Positions 2,019 through 55,831 of a stretch of DNA of 64,000 bases are shown piece by piece. Every line of letters begins with the position of its first letter. Positions within the stretch are counted from its first letter, which is position 1. This DNA comes from Dictyostelium discoideum (taxonomy: Eukaryota): the NCBI GenBank assembly GCA_000004695.1, contig CM000153.2, positions 3,008,001-3,072,000 on the forward strand, read 5' to 3'. A model generated the notes under the pieces. It saw only the letters and a list, made by a program, of their open reading frames with translations, ran no database searches and was not told where the DNA came from. Made by a program: the position numbers and the translations under genes.

Positions 2019-5081
<3,063 letters not shown>

Positions 5082-5565
5082 GAAAAAAAATAAAAAAAAA
5101 TACTTTAAATTTTTAAACTGCATCTTATTTTTTTTTTTTTTTAAAAAATTATTTGAATTGTTTTTATTTTTTATTTATATAAATATATATTATTTTTTTT
5201 TTTTTTTTATTCTATTTTTATTACAACTAATTGTTATTTTACAGTATTTGTTTGGTAAGATAATTTTACTAACCACAATGTAACCTCAAAAAAAAAAAAA
5301 ACAAAACCTCAACCACACATTAATTTTAGGAAGTTTTTTATTAAATTTTAAGCGATTGATGCTAAATTTAAATTTTCTTTTTTTATTTTATTTTATCCAC
5401 CACATCACTTCAAACCTCAACAGTTATTTTTTTATTTTTTTATTTTTTTTTAATTCTTTTTTATTTTTTTTTATTTTATTCTTTTTTTTATTTTTTTTTA
5501 TTTTTTTTTTTTTATTTTTTATTTTTTTATTGATTATATTATAATTATTATTGTTTTTAATTTTA

Positions 5566-5636
<71 letters not shown>

Positions 5637-31034: not shown

Positions 31035-34000
31035 ATGAAAAGTAGAAGAAAACACTTTTTCAAACAAATAGTTTTTATAATTTTAATTTTAATAGTAAGT
31101 GTAAATTCAGAGAGAATTGAATATTCAGCATATAGTGAAGATGATAAATCAATAAATATAGCCTTTAAAATAGATACACCAATTTGGGGATTTTCATATT
31201 ATTATAATCCTATTCAACATTTATCAATTATAAAATCAATTGAACCAATACCAATAATTAGAAATAATATACCATTTAAATGTAGATATCTATTAGATAA
31301 AAAAGGTTATCAAATTAATCTTATAAATTTAAAAGATGAGTATGTATATAACCTTTGCTTGAGATACTTTTTTTTTTTTTTTCAAAACACATTAAATTAA
31401 CACACACACACACATATATACTAATAAAAAAAAAAAATTAAAAAAAAATAGTTTTGGAGAAAATGATTTTTATAATAATATAATTTGTAATGCTACATCT
31501 AATAAAATAACAGAGAATAGTATTCAATTAAAAGGAAATGATATAAATACAACATATGAATTCATATGCATAGATGATAATGATAATAATAATAATAATA
31601 ATAATAATAATATAGATAATATAGATAATTTAATTATAAATAGTAGTGACTATCATGGTGATAGTAGTAATAGTAATAATAGTAATAATAATAATAGTAA
31701 TGAAATTGATAAATTTTTTTGTTTAAAAAATGATTTATCAAATCATACTCTTTGTACATATAATAGCAAATACGCATGCTTACAATCAATTGTTTTTTCA
31801 GGAACAAAAATAAATGAAGTATATAATATAAATAAAAAAGTTTTTTCAACATATAAATTTCAAAGATCAAATATAATTTCAATTAATGGTTTTTCTTATT
31901 CAATATATCTAGGTTAGTAGTAGTAATAATAAATATAAATATATAAATATTTAAATATATGTATACATATGATAAATAATTAATTATAATATTATAATAG
32001 GATGTGAAGCTAAATTTGTTGGAGCAATTAAATCATTAAATGGGATTATAATGTTAGTTGGTACACCATTTTTTAGGGAGAAATTAAGTAGTTATAGTTT
32101 TATGATGGGTGATAAATTATTACCGATTAGTGAAAATTTTGAAAATGATTTTCAATATGGAGAAGATGATAATGTGTTGATATCGATGGGAACTAATCAA
32201 ACTTTTTTAAATTTAACGAGATATTCTGATAATGTTTTGAAAATTCAATTGGAGGGTGGAAAAATCAAAGAGTTTAAAATCGATACACAGAATAAAATGA
32301 CATTGTCAATAGAAGCGTTGGGTGGTGATACAAAACCATATATTCAAATCGACTGTGAGAGTTGTATTGGAGCACGATTGAAAGGTTTGACTATGGATGT
32401 TGCACCAATTGTAAATTCAACCATTTTTCATTTAGATTTTAGTGTTTTTACATTATATGGTTCGATATATCTTCAATCGGCAATAGCACCATTTGAAACT
32501 TCAAATGTGGTTATAATCAATCCGATTATTAAAAGTCCTAAACAGGGTGAGGTTATAAAATTGAGTGTGAATAAAAATCAAAAGTATTCGACTTTGACTG
32601 TATTTGCGTATTATTTACCACCACAATTTGATGGTGAAACGCTGTTCACTTGCCAATTCATTCTGTTTGATAATACAACCATTCAAGTTGACCAAGAGGA
32701 TATATCGTCAACGAATACAGGTAGTTATTGGGAGTATAGTATTCAATCGACATTAACCTATGGTAGCGGCGAATTTCAAATCATTATAAATAATTTTCAA
32801 GTTGTAAATGGTAGTTCAGTAATAACATTTAAAAAAACAAATAGTTTTCGTTATGAATTTGAAAACCCTATCGTAGAAACTATATCACAACCTATAAGAG
32901 ACGGTGTTGGTATTGTAACTTTAACCGGCCAAAATCTTAATGGTTCTCCATTAATAACTATTGAAGGAGAAACTTCAATTAAATGTGGAAATGTTAAATT
33001 TAATGATGTTAATCAAATAACTTTTGAAATTACTCAAAGTCCTACCACAACCACTACCACCACCACCACCACTAAACCTGAAGATAAGTTTTATAATGTT
33101 ATAATTAATGTTGGTGGTACTAAAAGTGAACCATTCTTAATGAATTATTTACCAAGTGGTTGGAAATGTCCAAATAATTGTAGTGGTAATGGTTATTGTG
33201 ATGGTTCGTTAAATTGTATTTGCAATCAAGGATTTTCAGGTTACGATTGTTCAATATTAATTAATCAAGTATTAACCAACGCCAATTCATTACCAATATC
33301 AACAAATCAACAAATAAATGGTTCTTTCTCAATGACTGGTAATCATTTAAAGAATATTAGTTTTGAAATATCTTTAGCTGGTATCATAATTGATAGTGAT
33401 ACATTTAAACCATTACAAACTGATTTTAAAACTTTTTGTAAAGATTTTGATGATGGTTTTACATTGGATGCTAAAAATAGTAAATTATCAATTTCAACCA
33501 CTGCTCAATTCAATCCAAAAATATATAATTCAATTAATAGTATAAATTATAATGGAATTTATTTAGATAAACTTTCAAATAATTCAGTTTATTTAAAGGT
33601 TAATACGGCAAGCTCAACAATAACTACAATGAAATCATTAAAGGTTATTTATAAAGTGGATATAAAGGTTAATGGTAAAATACTCACGGATAATGATGAT
33701 GAATCAGTTACAACTGTAGTATCATCGCCAATTAATAATAAAATTTTAATTAAACATTTAGATTCAAATTCATGTTTACAAATTCATGTTTCAAATAGAT
33801 TTATGAATTATCAAAATATGGATGACGATTATGCTTCATTGGTTAAAATGGAATCAATACCAACAAGTGATATAAATAAACAAGATCAAAATAATCCAAT
33901 TTATTTAAGTATTAATATACCATTCGACGACGACGTTGTAGGTGGTGGTGGTGTTGATGGTGGTGATAATTCAAAATTTTCATTGGAGGTAGCTTCAACT

Positions 34001-34432
34001 TTTAGTGTTTTTAATGAATTTCCAACAAATATTAGAAATTCTCATCCAACTTTAAGTACAGCTGATAAATTCTTTATATCATTTGGTGTTGTAGTTGGTA
34101 TGGTTTTATTATTAGGTTTAATATTTAGATTTAGAAGATCAATTCGTTTCTATACTTTAAGATTCATAATCAATATTTATTTTCGTTATGGAAATCCTAG
34201 TGAAAAAATTCAAAACTTTTATGGTGGTTATGGTGTATTAAATGGTAAATTCGATTCATTAGAACTATTTTCAATGAATGGTGATGATGATGATATGGGA
34301 GCTCCAGATGGTGATGATGGTGTACCTGAGGAAGGTTACATTGTTAATCCATATGATGTTTATGATCCAACTCCAAGTGATTTCTTGGTTAATGAATTCA
34401 TAGAATCAAAAGCAACTTCCGAAATTGATTAA
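31035..34432 (+). CDS. Type-I transmembrane glycoprotein with an IPT/TIG-like domain, an EGF-like domain and an acidic cytoplasmic tail (Tgr/Tiger-family-like). This is copy A. About 3 exons: 31035-31342, about 31452-31903 and about 31993-34432.
   Basis: It has a signal peptide (MKSRRKHFFKQIVFIILILIVSVNS). An IPT/TIG-like stretch reads PIVETISQPIRDGVGIVTLTGQNLNGSPLITIEGE..KCGNVKF. An EGF-like stretch reads CPNNCSGNGYCDGSLNCICNQGFSGYDCS. A poly-Thr linker and a single TM (FISFGVVVGMVLLLGLIF) follow. The tail is acidic (NGDDDDMGAPDGDDGVPEEGY...). Introns are GATGA|GTATGT...aaaatag|TTTTGG and CTAG|GTTAGT...ataatag|GATGTG. Confidence 0.5.
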
Positions 34433-34777: not shown

Positions 34778-37700
34778 ATGGAAAAAAACCATGTTTTCCA
34801 ATTAATATTTTATTCAATTTTAATTTTAATTGTAAATGTAAATTCAAATAAAATTGAATATTCATCATATAGTGAAGATGATAAATCAATAAATATAACA
34901 CTTATAACAAATATACAGGATTTGGAAATTTCATATTATTATAATCCTATTCAACATTTATCAATTATAAAATCAATTGAACCAATACCAATAATTAGAA
35001 ATAATATACCATTTAAATGTGGATATCTATTAGATAATAAAGGTTATCAAATTAATCTTATAAATTTAAAAGATGAGTATGTATATAACCTGACTACTAT
35101 TTCTTTTGTATAAATTATAATTTTTTAATTAATATTAATAAAAAAAAAATTAAAAAAAAATAGTTTTGGAACAAATGATTTTTATAATAATATAATTTGT
35201 AATGCTACATCTAATAAAATAACAGAGAATAGTATTCAATTAAAAGGAAATGATATAAATACAACATATGAATTCATATGCATAGATGATAATGATAATA
35301 TAAATAATAATGACAATATAGATAATATAGATAATTTAAATAATTATAAAAATAATAATAATAATAATAGTAGTAGTAATAATAATAGTAATCGTAATAA
35401 TAATAATATAGATAATATAGATAATATAGATAATTTAATTATAAATAGTAGTGACTATCATGGTGATAGTAATAATAGTAATAATAGTAATAATAATAAT
35501 AGTAATGAAATTGATAAATTTTTTTGTTTAAAAAATGATTTATCAAATCATACTCTTTGTACATATAATAGCAAATACGCATGTTTACAATCAATTATTT
35601 TTAATGTAACTAGAATAAAAAGAGGATTTTCTATAAATAAAAATTTTATTTCATCCAATCCATTAATTAAAAGATCGAATATAATTTCAATTAATGGTTT
35701 TTATAAATCAATATATCTAGGTTAGTTGGTTATAATTTTAATTTTAATTATATATAAATATAAATAATATAATAATTAAATAAATTTATTAATAATAATT
35801 ATAATAAAATATTTTATTATAGAAAGGAAAGAAAAAAAAATTGTTGGAGAAATTAAATCATTAAATGGTATTGTAACATTAAGTGGTATACCATTTTTTA
35901 GGGAAAAATTAAGTAATTATAGTTTTATAATGGGTGATAATATATTACCAATTAGTGAATATTTTGAAAATGATTTTCAATATAGAGAAGATGATAATGT
36001 ATTGATATCGATGGAGACCAATCAAACAATTTTAAATTTAACAAGATATTCTGATAATATTTTAAAAGTTCAATTAGAAGGTATAGAAATTAAAGAATTT
36101 GAAATCGATACACAAAATAAAATGATTTTATCAATTGAAGAATTGAATGACACTAAACAATACATTCAAATAAATTGTGAAGGTTGTATTGGTGCACAAT
36201 TGAGAGGTTTAACTATGGATATTGGACAAACTGTAAATTCAACGAGTTTTAAATTGTATTATGATACTTTTACACTATATAGTCCCTTATATCTTCAATC
36301 ACCAATTGCACCATTTGAAACTTCAAATCTAGTTATAGTTAAACCAATTTATGATTATCCAATAAAAGGTGAAGTTTTACAATTAAAATCAAAAAGATAT
36401 AAAAATCCAATAATCACTGTATCTGGTTATTATTTACCTTCAAATTATGGTTTCTTTTTGTTCACTCCTGAATTCTTAATTCCTGGAGGAGCAATTATTC
36501 GAAGCTATATCATAAAATCAACTAATATAGGTAGTTATTGGCAGCATAGTATTGAATTGCCAGTGAATCAAGGTAGTGGTGAATTTAGACTTTATAAAAA
36601 TAATTTCATAATCATTGATGGTAAAGTAAATATAATAAATAAAACAGTCGAGATTTTTCCTTTTAAGTTTGATGAAAAACCAATAGTAGAAAGTGTGTCA
36701 CAACTACAAGAGATGGTGCTGGTTATTTAACTATATCTGGTCAAAGCTTTAATTATTACCTTCCAGTTTTGACGATCGAGGAAGAAACCTCTTGGATTTG
36801 TGGAAATATATCTATTTTTCCTGACATTGATCAATTAATTTGTAAAGTTAATAAACATCCTATTCAGGATAGATTCTATAATGTTGTCCTTAAAAAAATT
36901 ATTAGTTATAGATCTTCATATAATAGTGAACCATTCCTAATGAATTATTTACCAAGTGGTTGGAAATGTCCAAATAATTGTAGTGGTAATGGTCATTGTG
37001 ATGGTTCATTAAATTGTATTTGCGATGAAGGATTTTCAGGTTACGATTGTTCAATACTAATTAATCAAGTATTAACCAATGCCAATTCACTACCAATATC
37101 AACAAATCAACAAAGGTTGGGTTCTTTCTCAATGACTGGTAATCATTTAAATAATATGAATTTTCAAATCTCTTTAGTTGGTATCATTACTGATAGTGAT
37201 ACTAATTTAGAAGCAGCTGAAACATCTTTTAAATATTCAACAAAAAATTCCAATTCAGTTTATTATAAAGATTCAGTTAATGGTTTTACATTGGATGCTA
37301 AAAATAGTAATTATTCAATTTCGGCCACTGCTCAATTCAATCCAAATGTATATTTAAATAATAGTATAAATTATAATGGAATTTATTTAGATAAACTTTC
37401 AAATAATTCTGTATATTTAAAGGTTAATCTTACAATAGGTGAATTAAACAATAAAGATATACTAAAGGTTATTTATAAAGTTAATTTAAATGTTAATAAT
37501 CAAATTCTTGGAGATTTAAAAAAATCAGTTACTATATCTTCACCAATTAATAATAAGATTTTAATTAAACATTTAGACTCATGTTCATGTTTACAAATTC
37601 ATCTTTCAAATAGATTTATAAATAATGGATCAATTAATGATGGTTATGCTTCATTGGTTAAAATGGAATCAATAACTGAACAAGATAATTCAATTTATTT

Positions 37701-38100
37701 TAGTATTGAAATTCCAATTAATAATAATAATATAAATTCAACATCAGGAGTTTCATTGGAAGTTACTTCAAGTTTTAGTGTTTTTAATGAAATTATAGTT
37801 TTTGAAATTTTAGGTACAGATGGTAATTCTTTAATAATTTTTGGTATTGTAGTTAGTTTGGTTCTATTATTTTATTTAATGTTTGGATTTAAAAGAAATT
37901 TAACCAATGGTATATTAAATGGTAAAACCAACTCATTTGAATTACTCCCAATGAATGGTGATGATTTAGGTGCTCCTGATGATGATTGTTTTCCTGAGAA
38001 AGGCTACATTTTTAATCCTAATGACATTAATGATTCAACTCTTAGTGATATCTTGGTTAATGAATTCATTGAGTCAAAAGCAACTTGTGAAACTGATTAA
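34778..38100 (+). pseudogene. Tandem paralog (copy B) of the preceding Tgr-like glycoprotein gene. A 1-bp deletion (-1 frameshift) near 36705 makes it either a possible pseudogene or a sequencing error.
   Basis: It has the same 3-exon layout (34778-about 35082, about 35163-35715, about 35830-38100). Exons 1-2 are almost nucleotide-identical to copy A over about 300 bp. Exon 3 is 60-70% identical at the protein level. Relative to copy A, cacaacctataagagacggtg reads cacaactacaag-agatggtg. This splits the ORF into 35930-36730 and 36769-38100. The EGF-like CPNNCSGNGHCDGSLNCICDEGFSGYDCS, the TM and the acidic tail (NGDDLGAPDDDCFPEKGY) are conserved after the shift. Confidence 0.5.
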
Positions 38101-52463: not shown

Positions 52464-52788
52464 TTTATTATTTATATATTAATAAAATAATTATTTATAT
52501 ATATTAATAAAATAATAATTATTTTTTTTGTGGGTAAAAAAAAAAAAAAAAACTTCCATATATTTACCCCATTTTCAATATCTTGTAAAAACACCTTTTG
52601 CTCTGAAAATTAAATAAAAAAGAAATCAATGTAAATATATATATATTCCCCCCATTTCAAAAAAAAAAAAAAAAAAAAATTATTTACCACTATCAATAAT
52701 ATTATTTTGTTTGTTTGATTTGCCAATATCTTTTAGTGTTTTATTTAATTAAATTAATTTATGATTTAATTAATTATCTTTTTTCTAG

Positions 52789-52827
<39 letters not shown>

Positions 52828-52849
52828 AGTTAATTAAAGTATTAATAGT

Positions 52850-53630
52850 TTAATTTATTTCTTTTTGATTTTGTTGTGGTTGTTTTGAAGGATTCTTTTG
52901 TTTTTTTACTTTTCTAAAGACAGTAGTAGTAGTGGTGGTGGTGTTGCTGTTGTTGGTAATATCAGATTCATCATTATCTTCAATATTGTCATTATCTTTT
53001 ATTAATAAATTACTTTTATTATTATTTGATTGTTGCCAAACTCTTGGATCGAATTTATTTACAGTTTCAACATCTAATTGAAGATTAAAAGAGTTTTTAG
53101 TTTTACCAGATGATAAATCGACACCCACCGAATCCAAACCATAAACATTTGCAACTGCTAAAACACTACCTTTTCCACAGAATGGGTCAATGATAGTTGT
53201 TGAACCAATAGAACGACAATAAAGTATTGCAATTACACAAGCATTTAAACCCATAGCTTTTGACCAAACCATTGAACCTCTACCACCAATATCTGGTGTA
53301 TTCTCTTGATATTTGATATTGGTTGGATTCTTTGAAAAACAAATCATATGAGTGAATGTTGCTTTATTATTTGAAATGTTACTATGTGCTGTCATAATCT
53401 TATGCCAAATGACTTTACAACCTGATATCTCTGCTCCTTTTTGTGCTAAATATCCTTTATCAACATATTCTTCAATTATACCTCTATCCATTTTCCATTT
53501 TTTTTTAATATCAGTTTGATAAACAATTGCAACATTTTTTTCATCTAACTAAAAATAATTAAAAATTAGTTATAAGTATATATTAAAAAAAGGTTTTTTT
53601 TTTTTTTTTTTTTTTTTTAATTAAACTATG

Positions 53631-53702
<72 letters not shown>

Positions 53703-53980
53703 TATATATATATATATATATTTATAAAATACCTTTGAAGTAATTAAAGAAACAGTATCAGTGAACCATTGTTTATATTGTTCTAAATTCATACTTGATA
53801 CTTCACTTATATCAGGTAATGAAGTAATAACACTTGATTGTGGTGAAATTTCATTTTCCTTTAACCATTGTACTGCATCCATACAATAAATATCTCTATA
53901 AACACCAACTCTATCTAAAATACCATTCTTTTTATTTAATTCTAATGATTCTGCTGTAATTTCTTCATCTTTATTATTAC

Positions 53981-54058
<78 letters not shown>

Positions 54059-54356
54059 TATTATTTTCATTTTCATTTTGTTGTTGGTTTGAAATATCAT
54101 CAGTACCTGCTCCTAAATGATTGAATTGAGTTTGTTTTGACTTAGCACCAAAATATCTTTCTAAAATGATGTATTTCTTCATAAAATCTTTTTCTTCTTT
54201 TAAATTTAAAACAAACGGTTTATTTTTATTTATTTTATTTTTATTTTTATTTGTTATTGTTGTATTTTTTAAATTTTCTTCATTATTTGAACAATCATTG
54301 TTTGAAGCTATTGTTTCACTAATGTTATCATTATCTGTATTTTGGTCTTTATCCAT
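52850..54356 (-). CDS. Protein with the domain order of a beta-class (N4/N6) amino-methyltransferase. The catalytic-motif region lies N-terminal and the SAM-binding motif I lies near the C-terminus. Two exons: 54356-53733 and 53547-52850.
   Basis: The C-terminal motif I is TTIIDPFCGKGSVLAVANVYGLDSVGVDLS, which matches VLDPFAGSGTT..A...GR..IGIEL of the DNA methylase N-4/N-6 family. Upstream, IYCMDAVQWLKENEISPQSSVITSLPDISE occupies the place of the ...DLIxTDPPY catalytic motif, but reads SLPD rather than (D/N/S)PPY. A poly-N linker of about 40 residues is present. The donor is AAG|GTATTT (53733/53732), the intron contains (ATA)n/(TA)n, and the acceptor is ttag|TTAGATG (53547). Confidence 0.45.
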
Positions 54357-54766
54357 TTTATTTTATTTTTTTTCTAATTATAATTTTTTGTTTTTAAAAA
54401 AAAAAAAGTTGATAAAAAAAAAAAAAAAAAAAAAAAAAGGCTAAGGAAAAAAAAGTTGAAAAAAAAAAAAAAGTTAAGAAAAAAAGAAAAAAGTTGAAAA
54501 AAAAAAAAAAAATGGAAAAAGGAGAAAATATAAATAATCATAACTATTTATTATATAAATAATGAAATTAGTATTCAACAATAACTACAACCAATGCGGA
54601 GAATAATAAAAATATAACACTAACCTGTCATTTTAAGAAACAATTCCATTATCCCTAATTTTAAAACTTTTTGTCATTGTTTTTTTCTTTTTTTTTTTTT
54701 TTTTTTTTTTGGAAAAAATAAATTTGGAATGGTTAAAATCAAATTGTGTTTTAATTTTTTTTAAAT

Positions 54767-55831
54767 TTAAAATAACCAATACAAATTAATGATGAAAATA
54801 ATACTTACAGGTAACCTAGTTGATTTTTCGATATAAATTGATCTTTCTTCATTTTCATCATCATTATATTGATGATTAATCATTAATTGATGATTTGGTA
54901 CCATTGACCAAGCTTCACCTAGAGCGGCTTTATTATCAAAACTATTACCACCAACTGTATTATTTGTAATTAGAAATATGATTTGATAAGTGTCTGCTAT
55001 ATATTTAATTAATCTTGAAATCATCATCATTGTATAATGACCTTGAGTTTGTTTACCACCAATTATTGGTGCTAATAATGTACCAATTGAATCTATAACA
55101 ACCATTTTTAAACCTTTATAAAATTGATTTTCAAATGTTGGTATTTCATCTGAAATTATACTCAATGTACTATCGATTGTACTTAATAATTCTAATAATG
55201 TTATTGAATCAAAACAATTGAATACTTTAATTCTATCTAAAATTTTTAAAATTTTATCTTGTTCAATTTTATCATTATTTTCTTGTTGCTTTTGATGTTG
55301 TTTTTGTTGTTGTTTTTGTTGTTGTTTTTGTCGTTGTTTTATTAAATAATTTGATTTAAAAATTTCAATTAATCTTGGTGGTGAAAATGAATTTGAACTA
55401 TCAATATAAATTATATTTGAATTATATTGTTGTGATAAATTTAAAGAACAACACATTGAAATTTGAGTTTTACCACATGATGTATTACCAACCAATTCAT
55501 AGATTTCACCACTTGTAAAACCATTACCACCTAATAATTGATCTAATAATTTAATACCACTTGAATAATGTGTTTTAAATTCTTTAACATCTAAATAATG
55601 TTGGTATCCATTTATTGGTACTGATGAAAATAATCTTTGTAAATTTCTTTGTATTAAAGTAACAGTTTCAATTGGTATAGATGTATTCCTTTGAATTTGA
55701 TATGCATCTGAAAATAATATTAAATCAATCATTGGATATCCATTATTTTCAAATTTAATTACATTATCTTCGCTTAAACATTGTGTTTGATAAAATCTAA
55801 CTTCTAGTCCTGATATACTTTCTTCTTCCAT
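54767..55831 (-). CDS. RAD51 paralog (RecA-like ATPase; RAD51D/XRCC2-like).
   Basis: Walker A lies within LLGGNGFTSGEIYELVGNTSCGKTQISMCCSL, which matches RAD51D [22 protein letters not shown]. Walker B is a hydrophobic stretch ending in D (KMVVIDSIGTLLAP). The ORF tail runs ...STRLP followed by GTAAGT at about 54805, which suggests a short additional 3' exon (about 54590-54650). A (KQQQ)n insert is present. Confidence 0.55.
   Translation of the reverse strand: MEEESISGLEVRFYQTQCLSEDNVIKFENNGYPMIDLILFSDAYQIQRNTSIPIETVTLIQRNLQRLFSSVPINGYQHYLDVKEFKTHYSSGIKLLDQLLGGNGFTSGEIYELVGNTSCGKTQISMCCSLNLSQQYNSNIIYIDSSNSFSPPRLIEIFKSNYLIKQRQKQQQKQQQKQHQKQQENNDKIEQDKILKILDRIKVFNCFDSITLLELLSTIDSTLSIISDEIPTFENQFYKGLKMVVIDSIGTLLAPIIGGKQTQGHYTMMMISRLIKYIADTYQIIFLITNNTVGGNSFDNKAALGEAWSMVPNHQLMINHQYNDDENEERSIYIEKSTRLPVSIIFIINLYWLF

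Follow-up and report, generated by a model that had tools for sequence, protein, structure and literature searches.

An intron-containing Dictyostelium gene for a circularly permuted methyltransferase of the TSLPD family, whose bacterial relatives are associated with DTW-domain acp3U transferases

The gene described here is located in a stretch of 64,000 nucleotides of the Dictyostelium discoideum genome (GenBank assembly GCA_000004695.1, contig CM000153.2, positions 3,008,001 to 3,072,000 of the forward strand). This whole stretch is called the window, and all coordinates refer to it. The coding sequence covers exactly 52850-54356 on the minus strand, from start codon to stop codon, and forms one gene of two exons with a product of 440 amino acids. 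The product is a predicted methyltransferase of a family that we call TSLPD, after the pentapeptide in its catalytic loop. Exon 1 (53733-54356, codons 1-208) encodes a low-complexity N-terminal extension followed by strand 3, strand 4 with the TSLPD motif, and helix D. Exon 2 (52850-53548, codons 209-440 plus the stop codon at 52850-52852) encodes what remains of the methyltransferase domain and, after it, a C-terminal tail of low complexity. The 184-nt intron (53549-53732) has GT...AG borders, is in phase 0 and contains (AT)n and (ATT)n repeats and an A-run. It interrupts the catalytic domain after helix D (…SLITSK) and before strand 5 (LDEKNVAIVYQTD). The splice reconstruction is supported because each exon matches the family hidden Markov model by itself (E 4.4e-23 for exon 1, E 6.6e-64 for exon 2) and because, once the intron is removed, the product is colinear across the junction with the intron-free D. 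firmibasis protein KAK5580741 (…SLITSKLDENNVAIVYQTD…). This protein is 76% identical to the window protein overall and nearly identical to it in the core. The same colinearity is found with intron-less bacterial homologues.

The product consists of an N-terminal extension that is acidic and rich in Asn, a core of some 240 residues, and the C-terminal tail, which ends in a basic patch. The sequence strings on which a preliminary description of the locus was based are all present: IYCMDAVQWL (residues 156-165), SSVITSLPDISE (174-185), IIDPFCGKGS (327-336) and a poly-asparagine tract (98-128). The tract (53973-54065, 31 residues) had been called a linker. It lies outside the catalytic domain, in the N-terminal extension, and, being shortened or absent in D. 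firmibasis, is not part of the conserved enzyme. The catalytic domain (53027-53924, interrupted by the intron; residues ~145-382) has the beta-class, circularly permuted Rossmann methyltransferase fold. Its elements, all on the minus strand, are the following. IYCMDAVQWL (53862-53891) corresponds to strand 3 with the motif III-like acidic residue D160; its A and W are at least 90% conserved in the family alignment, and a D or E precedes in most members. By analogy, the acidic residue of strand 3 would bind the adenine of S-adenosylmethionine (SAM). SSVITSLPDISE (53802-53837) comprises strand 4 and the catalytic loop, where S-L-P-D, encoded at 53811-53822, stands in place of (D/N/S)PP(Y/F); the full TSLPD motif occupies residues 178-182. 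Helix D starts with QYKQWF (53763-53780), of which the W-F pair represents invariant columns, and strand 5 is formed by AIVYQTDIKK (53501-53530), with invariant Q and D columns; viral members keep YQTDRK at this place. The family-specific polar motifs YVDKGYL, VIWHKI and TFTHMICF (53336-53467) contain an invariant or near-invariant K, H-K and H. IIDPFCGKGS (53165-53194; DPFCGKGS at residues 329-336) is motif I, the SAM-binding glycine loop at strand 1, and its D, P, F, C and two G show little or no variation in the family. SVGVDLS (53111-53131) is strand 2, which ends in the motif II acidic residue within the conserved pattern G-[VI]-[DE]-[LI]; by the same analogy this residue is expected to bind the ribose. 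Finally, the C-terminal basic patch RKVKKQKNPSK (52883-52915) is conserved in D. firmibasis and could possibly be a nuclear localisation signal.

In the order of these elements motif IV precedes motif I, which is the circular permutation of the beta layout. Generic profiles recognise the motif I segment only, with 14.8 bits for PF01170, 17.6 for TIGR01177 and 21.6 for PF01555, and UPF0020 and CcrM profiles do likewise. The PF01555 score, obtained with the core of the window protein, is under the gathering threshold of 26.7, and the full-length protein has no PF01555 match; some family homologues exceed this threshold (34.8 bits, for example; best E 3.6e-10). In a profile alignment with the beta-class methylase TTHA0409 (2zie), a weak and sub-threshold domain match, the family sequence vitSLP is placed on VVTSPP, consistent with SLPD occupying the (D/N/S)PP(Y/F) position. 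A structure was predicted for the D. purpureum orthologue, which is 69% identical to the window protein, from a 76-sequence alignment (predicted local distance difference test, pLDDT, 92.4; predicted template modelling score, pTM, 0.90). In this model the TSLPD-bearing strand precedes the DPFCG-bearing strand. Compared with solved enzymes, the model scored highest with M.MboIIA (20.2), followed by M.BceJIV (19.6), TTHA0409 (18.6), rotifer N4CMT (18.3), M.RsrI (18.3), CcrM (18.0), M1.HpyAVI (17.8) and M.PvuII (17.8). Type III Mod subunits scored ~16, MT-A70 enzymes 10-14, and unpermuted class-I enzymes, including Trm11, 7 or less. Sequence identity to the solved PF01555 members is 12-16%. The beta-class layout proposed in the preliminary description, with M.PvuII as one example, is thus confirmed by the predicted structure. 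Its other example, the ParB-fused methylases, does not hold: those found beside viral members of the family are unpermuted.

Permutation is not as unusual in eukaryotes as had been stated at first. The MT-A70 enzymes (METTL3, METTL14, METTL4, and ciliate MTA1 and MTA9) are eukaryotic, have a circularly permuted Rossmann fold and act on RNA or DNA adenine. Active MT-A70 members carry a DPPW loop and form heterodimers with an inactive paralogue, whereas the TSLPD family has no DPPW-type motifs and is structurally nearer to the PF01555 enzymes. The beta-class PF01555 enzymes (M.MboIIA, M.RsrI, M.PvuII, CcrM, M1.HpyAVI and N4CMT) share with it the motif I pattern D-P-F-x-G-x-G-[ST]. M1.HpyAVI is of similarly minimal size, and small members of its kind lack a classical target-recognition domain. 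Bdelloid rotifer N4CMT is the only characterised eukaryotic DNA enzyme of PF01555 (PMC8885841).

The best matches of the protein are not to unpermuted enzymes of the Trm11/METTL5 type. Matches to these cover ~30-40 residues of motif I and reach 15-25 bits, and archaeal Trm11 chains match the window protein at E ~0.06. The likeness to Trm11 and TIGR01177 is limited to the surroundings of motif I (DPxCGxGS and strand 2). Trm11 is unpermuted, with motif I before the DPPY loop, and has an N-terminal THUMP domain. The window protein shows neither the unpermuted order nor a THUMP domain, and its TIGR01177 match is far from the 316-bit cut-off. The family homologue of Acrasis kona, KAL0482521 (P0113), is annotated as "tRNA (guanine(10)-N2)-dimethyltransferase" on the basis of a motif I match of ~30 residues to TIGR01177 (21.9 bits). 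As judged from its sequence, this Trm11-type name is an unsupported over-annotation.

The non-canonical tetrapeptide pointed out in the preliminary description is real. In 76 homologues the T, S, L, P and D of the loop and a downstream E are at least 90% conserved, and of 147 additional representatives of the family that were listed, nearly all have TSLPD again. The positions that are invariant or at least 90% conserved family-wide read T-S-[LI]-P-D-x-S-E, W-F, (Y)Q-T-D, D-K, (W)H-K, (S)H, P-D and D-P-F-C-G-x-G. PF01555 enzymes have a (D/N/S)-P-P-(Y/F/W) loop, in which the aromatic residue stacks on the base. In the pocket of the TSLPD family this stacking aromatic is replaced by Asp, and a conserved Glu follows three residues on. 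In the window protein the putative pocket would be lined by S179, D182, E185, Q218, D220, K239, H257 and H275. Since the loop is conserved in hundreds of homologues from bacteria, viruses and eukaryotes, SLPD is characteristic of the family and does not reflect decay. The usual SAM contacts are all retained (motif I glycine loop, acidic residue at the end of strand 2, acidic residue of strand 3), so an active enzyme is predicted. Another explanation is that the protein has lost its activity, having degenerated from a bacterial DNA methyltransferase, and is retained for binding or as a scaffold, like METTL14 or MTA9. This is very improbable, because SAM-binding motifs I, II and III are intact and because the replacement loop is itself conserved throughout the family, including in single-copy bacterial proteins of 210-250 amino acids with no active paralogue nearby. 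Moreover, the core is ~93% identical among species of the D. discoideum group while the flanks diverge. The suggestion of a degenerate DNA methyltransferase, one of those made at first, is equally at odds with the ~20 further positions that, like TSLPD, are invariant or nearly so across hundreds of homologues. A pseudogene was likewise considered and rejected.

Searches for relatives showed how large the family is. A word-indexed search gave 77 homologues. Those of other dictyostelids (D. purpureum, Cavenderia, Polysphondylium, Heterostelium and Acytostelium) are 52-69% identical; others, of about 220 amino acids, are 33-44% identical, and all the named ones among them belong to Myxococcota. 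When 1.84 billion cluster representatives were searched exhaustively with a profile, 461 of them matched at E<1e-30, and 979 did so at E<1e-10. No curated model for the family was found in Pfam, NCBIfam or PHROGs. The prokaryotic reference genomes contain 21 full-length copies, 19 in Myxococcota and one each in Opitutaceae and Planctomycetota. Myxococcota with a family member include Archangium, Corallococcus, Polyangiaceae, Kofleriaceae and others. Beyond Dictyostelia, the named eukaryotes are Acrasis kona (Heterolobosea), Gymnodinium smaydae (a dinoflagellate) and Mesostigma viride (a streptophyte alga). Many metagenomic members are 300-770 amino acids long, and a hydrophobic N-terminal segment is present in 18 of the 72 members that are extended at the N-terminus. 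In some eukaryote-like members that are long and high in GC, the methyltransferase domain is preceded at the N-terminus by one C2H2 zinc finger (P0196, P0203) or by a PHD-like segment rich in Cys (P0112), with weak or absent Pfam support. The median isoelectric point is ~8.5, against 7.7 for the core of the window protein; substrate classes cannot be told apart by charge.

The gene is a resident nuclear gene and not a contamination, as had been proposed from its intron and poly-asparagine tract. This is established by the spliceosomal intron, the GC content of the window (21.7%), neighbours of Dictyostelium type (genes for a Dicty_CTDC repeat protein, a RhoGEF, an OGT-like glycosyltransferase and a Rad51 paralogue) and orthologues in every dictyostelid group tested. 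In a neighbour-joining tree with bootstraps the dictyostelid sequences are monophyletic (100%), and the gene was present in the dictyostelid ancestor. They are placed among the long eukaryote-like sequences, nearest to Acrasis (30% support) and apart from the Myxococcota group. All deep nodes have 30% bootstrap or less, i.e. are unsupported. An ancient horizontal acquisition, one of the options offered at first, may have taken place, and in either direction. Bacterial contamination, or a recent lineage-specific transfer from Myxococcota prey, would fit with the predominance of Myxococcota among the full-length copies in reference genomes and among the named non-dictyostelid relatives (35-41% identity in a single-sequence search). 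Both were rejected and are extremely improbable. The intron, the GC content, the neighbours and the dictyostelid-wide orthologues effectively refute them, and the poly-asparagine tract, the homologues in Acrasis, Gymnodinium and Mesostigma and the position of the dictyostelids outside the Myxococcota group (with the deep nodes unsupported) also speak against them.

The bacterial relatives provide a gene context. We collected 103 bacterial and metagenomic loci and clustered all neighbouring open reading frames; 78 loci with at least 1.5 kb of flanking sequence were informative. After the methyltransferase itself and the overlapping shadow reading frames typical of high GC, DTW-domain proteins (PF03942, E 1e-28 to 1e-47) are the most frequent neighbours; a gene for one lies within 1 kb at 14 of the 78 informative loci. 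It is directly downstream on the same strand in five cases (gaps of 20-68 bp), upstream in two, convergent in six and divergent in one. The methyltransferases linked to DTW belong to at least six lineages with a mutual identity of only 40-58%, so the linkage is not one inherited block. Methyltransferase-DTW fusions were found in three clusters (P0122, P0240 with 22 members, and P0249), two of them by a profile search with full-length, low-complexity-rich sequences (20 matches). The association of the bacterial relatives with DTW acp3U transferases is non-random. The characterised DTW enzymes TapT, DTWD1 and DTWD2 attach the aminocarboxypropyl (acp) group from SAM to tRNA, at N3 of uridine, giving acp3U (PMC6895100), and the primary amine of acp3U can be modified further, as in its acetylation by AcpA (bioRxiv 10.1101/723049).

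The DTW neighbours are themselves of some note. They are about 390-430 amino acids long (L020 6645-7826, L022 3348-4521, L011 6710-7844, L151 2559-3726 and others), and the one representative scanned against NCBIfam, L020 6645-7826, had no match. Their conserved C-terminal domain (…EANAWP…H.GL…GRAGRRL…) matches the inactive 3'-5' exonuclease-like fusion that Burroughs and Aravind (PMC4275035) described at the C-terminus of DTWD2-family members in delta-proteobacteria and planctomycetes. Some further partners are of the translation or tailoring type. ABC-F ATPase neighbours are real, but they come mostly from one lineage of loci 79-87% identical, plus one or two others, and are weak evidence. 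Fusions to a RimJ/L-type GNAT domain and to a PhyH 2-oxoglutarate (2OG) oxygenase (P0176, P0231) also occur. A C-terminal DUF309 fusion (PF03745, with an HE.WE..W helical motif) is recurrent in bacterial members (P0047, P0058, P0072, P0078, P0334, P0362).

What the members of the family methylate is suggested by this context. The TSLPD family, distinct and biochemically uncharacterised, shares its circularly permuted beta-class fold with M.MboIIA and M.PvuII. From sequence and gene context we propose that the Dictyostelium protein may be an active RNA N-methyltransferase, probably acting on tRNA and linked to acp3U; this is a tentative assignment, a good possibility though short of probable. 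The preliminary description had offered an RNA or protein enzyme among its options, and the gene context, with the DTW linkage and fusions, favours RNA. The enzyme would bind SAM as other beta-class enzymes do. Its pocket, with Asp in place of the base-stacking aromatic and the Glu nearby, might take one fixed, universal acceptor rather than a DNA sequence. This acceptor would most likely be a nucleoside of tRNA (or rRNA) functionally coupled to acp3U. A specific guess would be N- or O-methylation of the acp side chain itself, and the acidic loop residues would suit a protonated amine; alternatively, the target could be a base neighbouring acp3U.

The guess takes its model from known pathways in which acp transfer is followed by methylation: Tsr3 and Nep1 (m1acp3-pseudouridine), TYW2 and TYW4 (wybutosine), Dph2 and Dph5 (diphthamide), and BtaA and BtaB (the betaine lipid DGTS, diacylglyceryl-trimethylhomoserine). 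An acp-transferase (DTW) and a SAM-dependent methyltransferase that are adjacent or fused match the logic of these pathways, by analogy and not by homology. To our knowledge, none of the methyltransferases in them has the permuted beta-class fold.

Very probably the family is already on record, from computation only. Iyer, Zhang and Aravind (2016, Bioessays 38:27, PMC4738411) describe a "Group-1, Clade 2" that is circularly permuted, sporadic in eukaryotes and characterised by an unusual strand-4 motif with Ser. According to their account, this clade has relatives in myxobacteria and archaeal double-stranded DNA viruses, its eukaryotic members are often fused to PPR domains, and its predicted role is RNA N4-cytosine methylation, an independent prediction in favour of RNA for what appears to be the TSLPD family. 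Four of these five descriptors agree with the TSLPD family, namely the permuted domain, the Ser in TSLPD, the members in Myxococcota together with gp12 of Haloarcula californiae tailed virus 2 (HCTV-2), and the patchy occurrence in protists; the match is by description, not sequence by sequence. In the passages on this clade, an association with DTW is not mentioned.

The viral members deserve separate consideration. HCTV-2 gp12 matches at 32% identity, with 99% of the query aligned (E 7e-30). On six IMG/VR contigs a variant subfamily is encoded whose motif reads TS[LM]P[DE][AM]EE and in which the remaining invariants are kept. In all five contigs of prokaryotic viruses, that of HCTV-2 included, the family gene adjoins a gene for a second, DNA-type methyltransferase and lies upstream of the terminase, and no DTW gene is present. 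These second methyltransferases (L169 121-1026, L170 1081-2073, L181 2321-3859, L171 3222-4982 and L167 4845-5729) are unpermuted: motif I (LDPFAGGSVRG) comes first and is followed by an S/T-C-P-P-Y-x-D-L-E loop (e.g. FSCPPY). Two of them have an N-terminal ParB domain, and Pfam sees them only through the motif I of PF01555. Among the viral structures of BFVD, matches were to generic beta-class DNA methyltransferases only, at 15% identity or less. On one phage contig an Asp/Arg beta-hydroxylase-like gene (cupin/2OG; L181 3867-4985) stands between the ParB-methyltransferase gene and the TSLPD-family gene, upstream of the terminase. Together with the PhyH fusions, it makes a recurrent pairing of methyltransferase and oxygenase. 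The sixth contig (L168, IMG/VR, 46 kb, GC 45%; 4932-5612 and 2044-2751) is classed as viral and has a TSMPE-loop member near a RING-finger gene, which suggests a eukaryotic virus or a misclassified eukaryotic fragment.

Several results weigh against an acp3U-linked RNA methyltransferase and have to be set beside the DTW linkage. The eight best structural matches are all DNA N6-adenine or N4-cytosine methyltransferases. At 64 of the 78 informative loci no DTW gene is nearby. The setting of the viral genes, beside a second methyltransferase and upstream of the terminase, is a classic position for DNA modification, so that a role on DNA has to stay under consideration, for the viral subfamily at least. 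The PPR fusions of Clade 2 were found neither among 78 long members nor among the best 120 matches listed with their Pfam domains. tRNA genes are not enriched near family members, occurring at 6 of 60 loci and at assorted distances. No family member was seen in animals, although these have DTWD1/2, so there is no strict co-occurrence. We know of no methylated derivative of acp3U. Finally, the substrate is deduced from bacterial gene context and carried over to a eukaryote at 35-40% identity.

Some of these results would be accounted for if the protein were an orphan DNA methyltransferase, producing N4-methylcytosine (4mC), N6-methyladenine (6mA) or some uncommon methylation of DNA, possibly of low sequence specificity, and using its loop as a workable variant of SPPY. 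The structural matches, viral ones included, and the five prokaryotic-virus loci point in this direction, and the first loop residue is Ser, as in N4-cytosine enzymes. The zinc finger or PHD-like segment of some eukaryote-like members and the putative nuclear localisation patch of the Dictyostelium protein would also suit a DNA substrate. We nevertheless regard this explanation as rather unlikely. It has to dispense with the aromatic residue that stacks on the flipped base, now a conserved Asp. No target-recognition domain is evident: in the model, only ~25 residues connect strand 7 (E145-152) to the motif X helix (H181-193), with one short strand and otherwise no regular secondary structure. 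The putative active site is conserved across bacteria, viruses and eukaryotes, unlike that of sequence-specific DNA methyltransferases. Cellular members lack a restriction partner; no recurrent restriction endonuclease was found by the neighbour clustering of the 103 loci, and a single HNH neighbour occurs in one lineage. The hydrophobic N-terminal segment, possibly an anchor, in a quarter of the N-terminally extended members does not suit DNA either, and the DTW linkage would be left without explanation. In D. discoideum DNA, neither 6mA nor 5-methylcytosine (5mC) was detected by nanopore sequencing, in a study that did not address 4mC (PMC12695648).

The replacement of the aromatic by Asp, with Glu three positions later, can be read in another manner, as a scaffold re-tooled for a cationic acceptor. 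The substrate would then be a protein, for example one of the ribosome or of translation, or a small molecule bearing an amine, such as a lipid head group or a metabolite. The N-terminal hydrophobic segments, the fusions to GNAT, PhyH and DUF309, the hydroxylase-like neighbour in the phage, the ABC-F neighbours and the only mildly basic isoelectric points (median and window core) are all compatible with this. We consider it unlikely, since the characterised enzymes with the permuted fold all act on DNA or RNA bases, judging from the structural matches and from general knowledge of MT-A70 and PF01555, and since the strongest association of the family is with an RNA-modifying enzyme. Neighbour clustering of the 103 loci also revealed no conserved neighbour that points to a metabolic pathway.

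Within the RNA methyltransferase proposal, the version in which acp3U of tRNA or rRNA is methylated on its acp side chain, at the aliphatic amino (or carboxyl) group, can be spelled out further, although we think it quite unlikely as it stands and it is drawn by analogy. Such a reaction has not yet been described for the permuted amino-methyltransferase fold. Its product would be a new modified nucleoside, N-methyl- or trimethyl-acp3U, in Dictyostelium, other protists and Myxococcota, and the viral members would perform the same chemistry on an amino-bearing, hypermodified DNA base.

The TSLPD family is thus a large, conserved family (hundreds of clusters at 50% identity) that has no curated profile, solved structure or assigned substrate. 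Its scaffold is that of DNA amino-methyltransferases, and its loop is not one expected to stack a base. Identification of the substrate would probably bring to light a modification of RNA (or DNA) that is new, or else a new writer enzyme. The association with DTW leads to a specific hypothesis, acp3U-linked methylation, which would extend the work on acp3U, from its acetylated form to its role in glycoRNA attachment. D. discoideum is a tractable organism for this question, with axenic growth, knockouts, and a DNA reported to be without 6mA and 5mC. It is worth noting that PF01555-like matches in eukaryotes are not by themselves evidence of 4mC or 6mA in DNA.

Other features of the window were recorded. 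A profile scan of the 64-kb window gave no DTW match. Immediately upstream of the methyltransferase gene, and likewise on the minus strand, is the gene for the Rad51-family paralogue (54767-55831; PF08423, E 1.6e-10; Walker A motif GKTQ). Two genes on the plus strand, at 31396-34429 and 35129-38097, are tandem paralogues with almost identical N-terminal reading-frame sequences (…KKLKKNSFG.NDFYNNIICNATSNKITENSIQLKGNDINTTYEFICID…), which looks like a recent tandem duplication; the first of them also has a weak EGF_TEN-like match. Very long A/T homopolymer runs flank the methyltransferase gene (52780-52830 and 54400-54520) and occur in its intron (53590-53620), as is typical for intergenic and intronic DNA of Dictyostelium.

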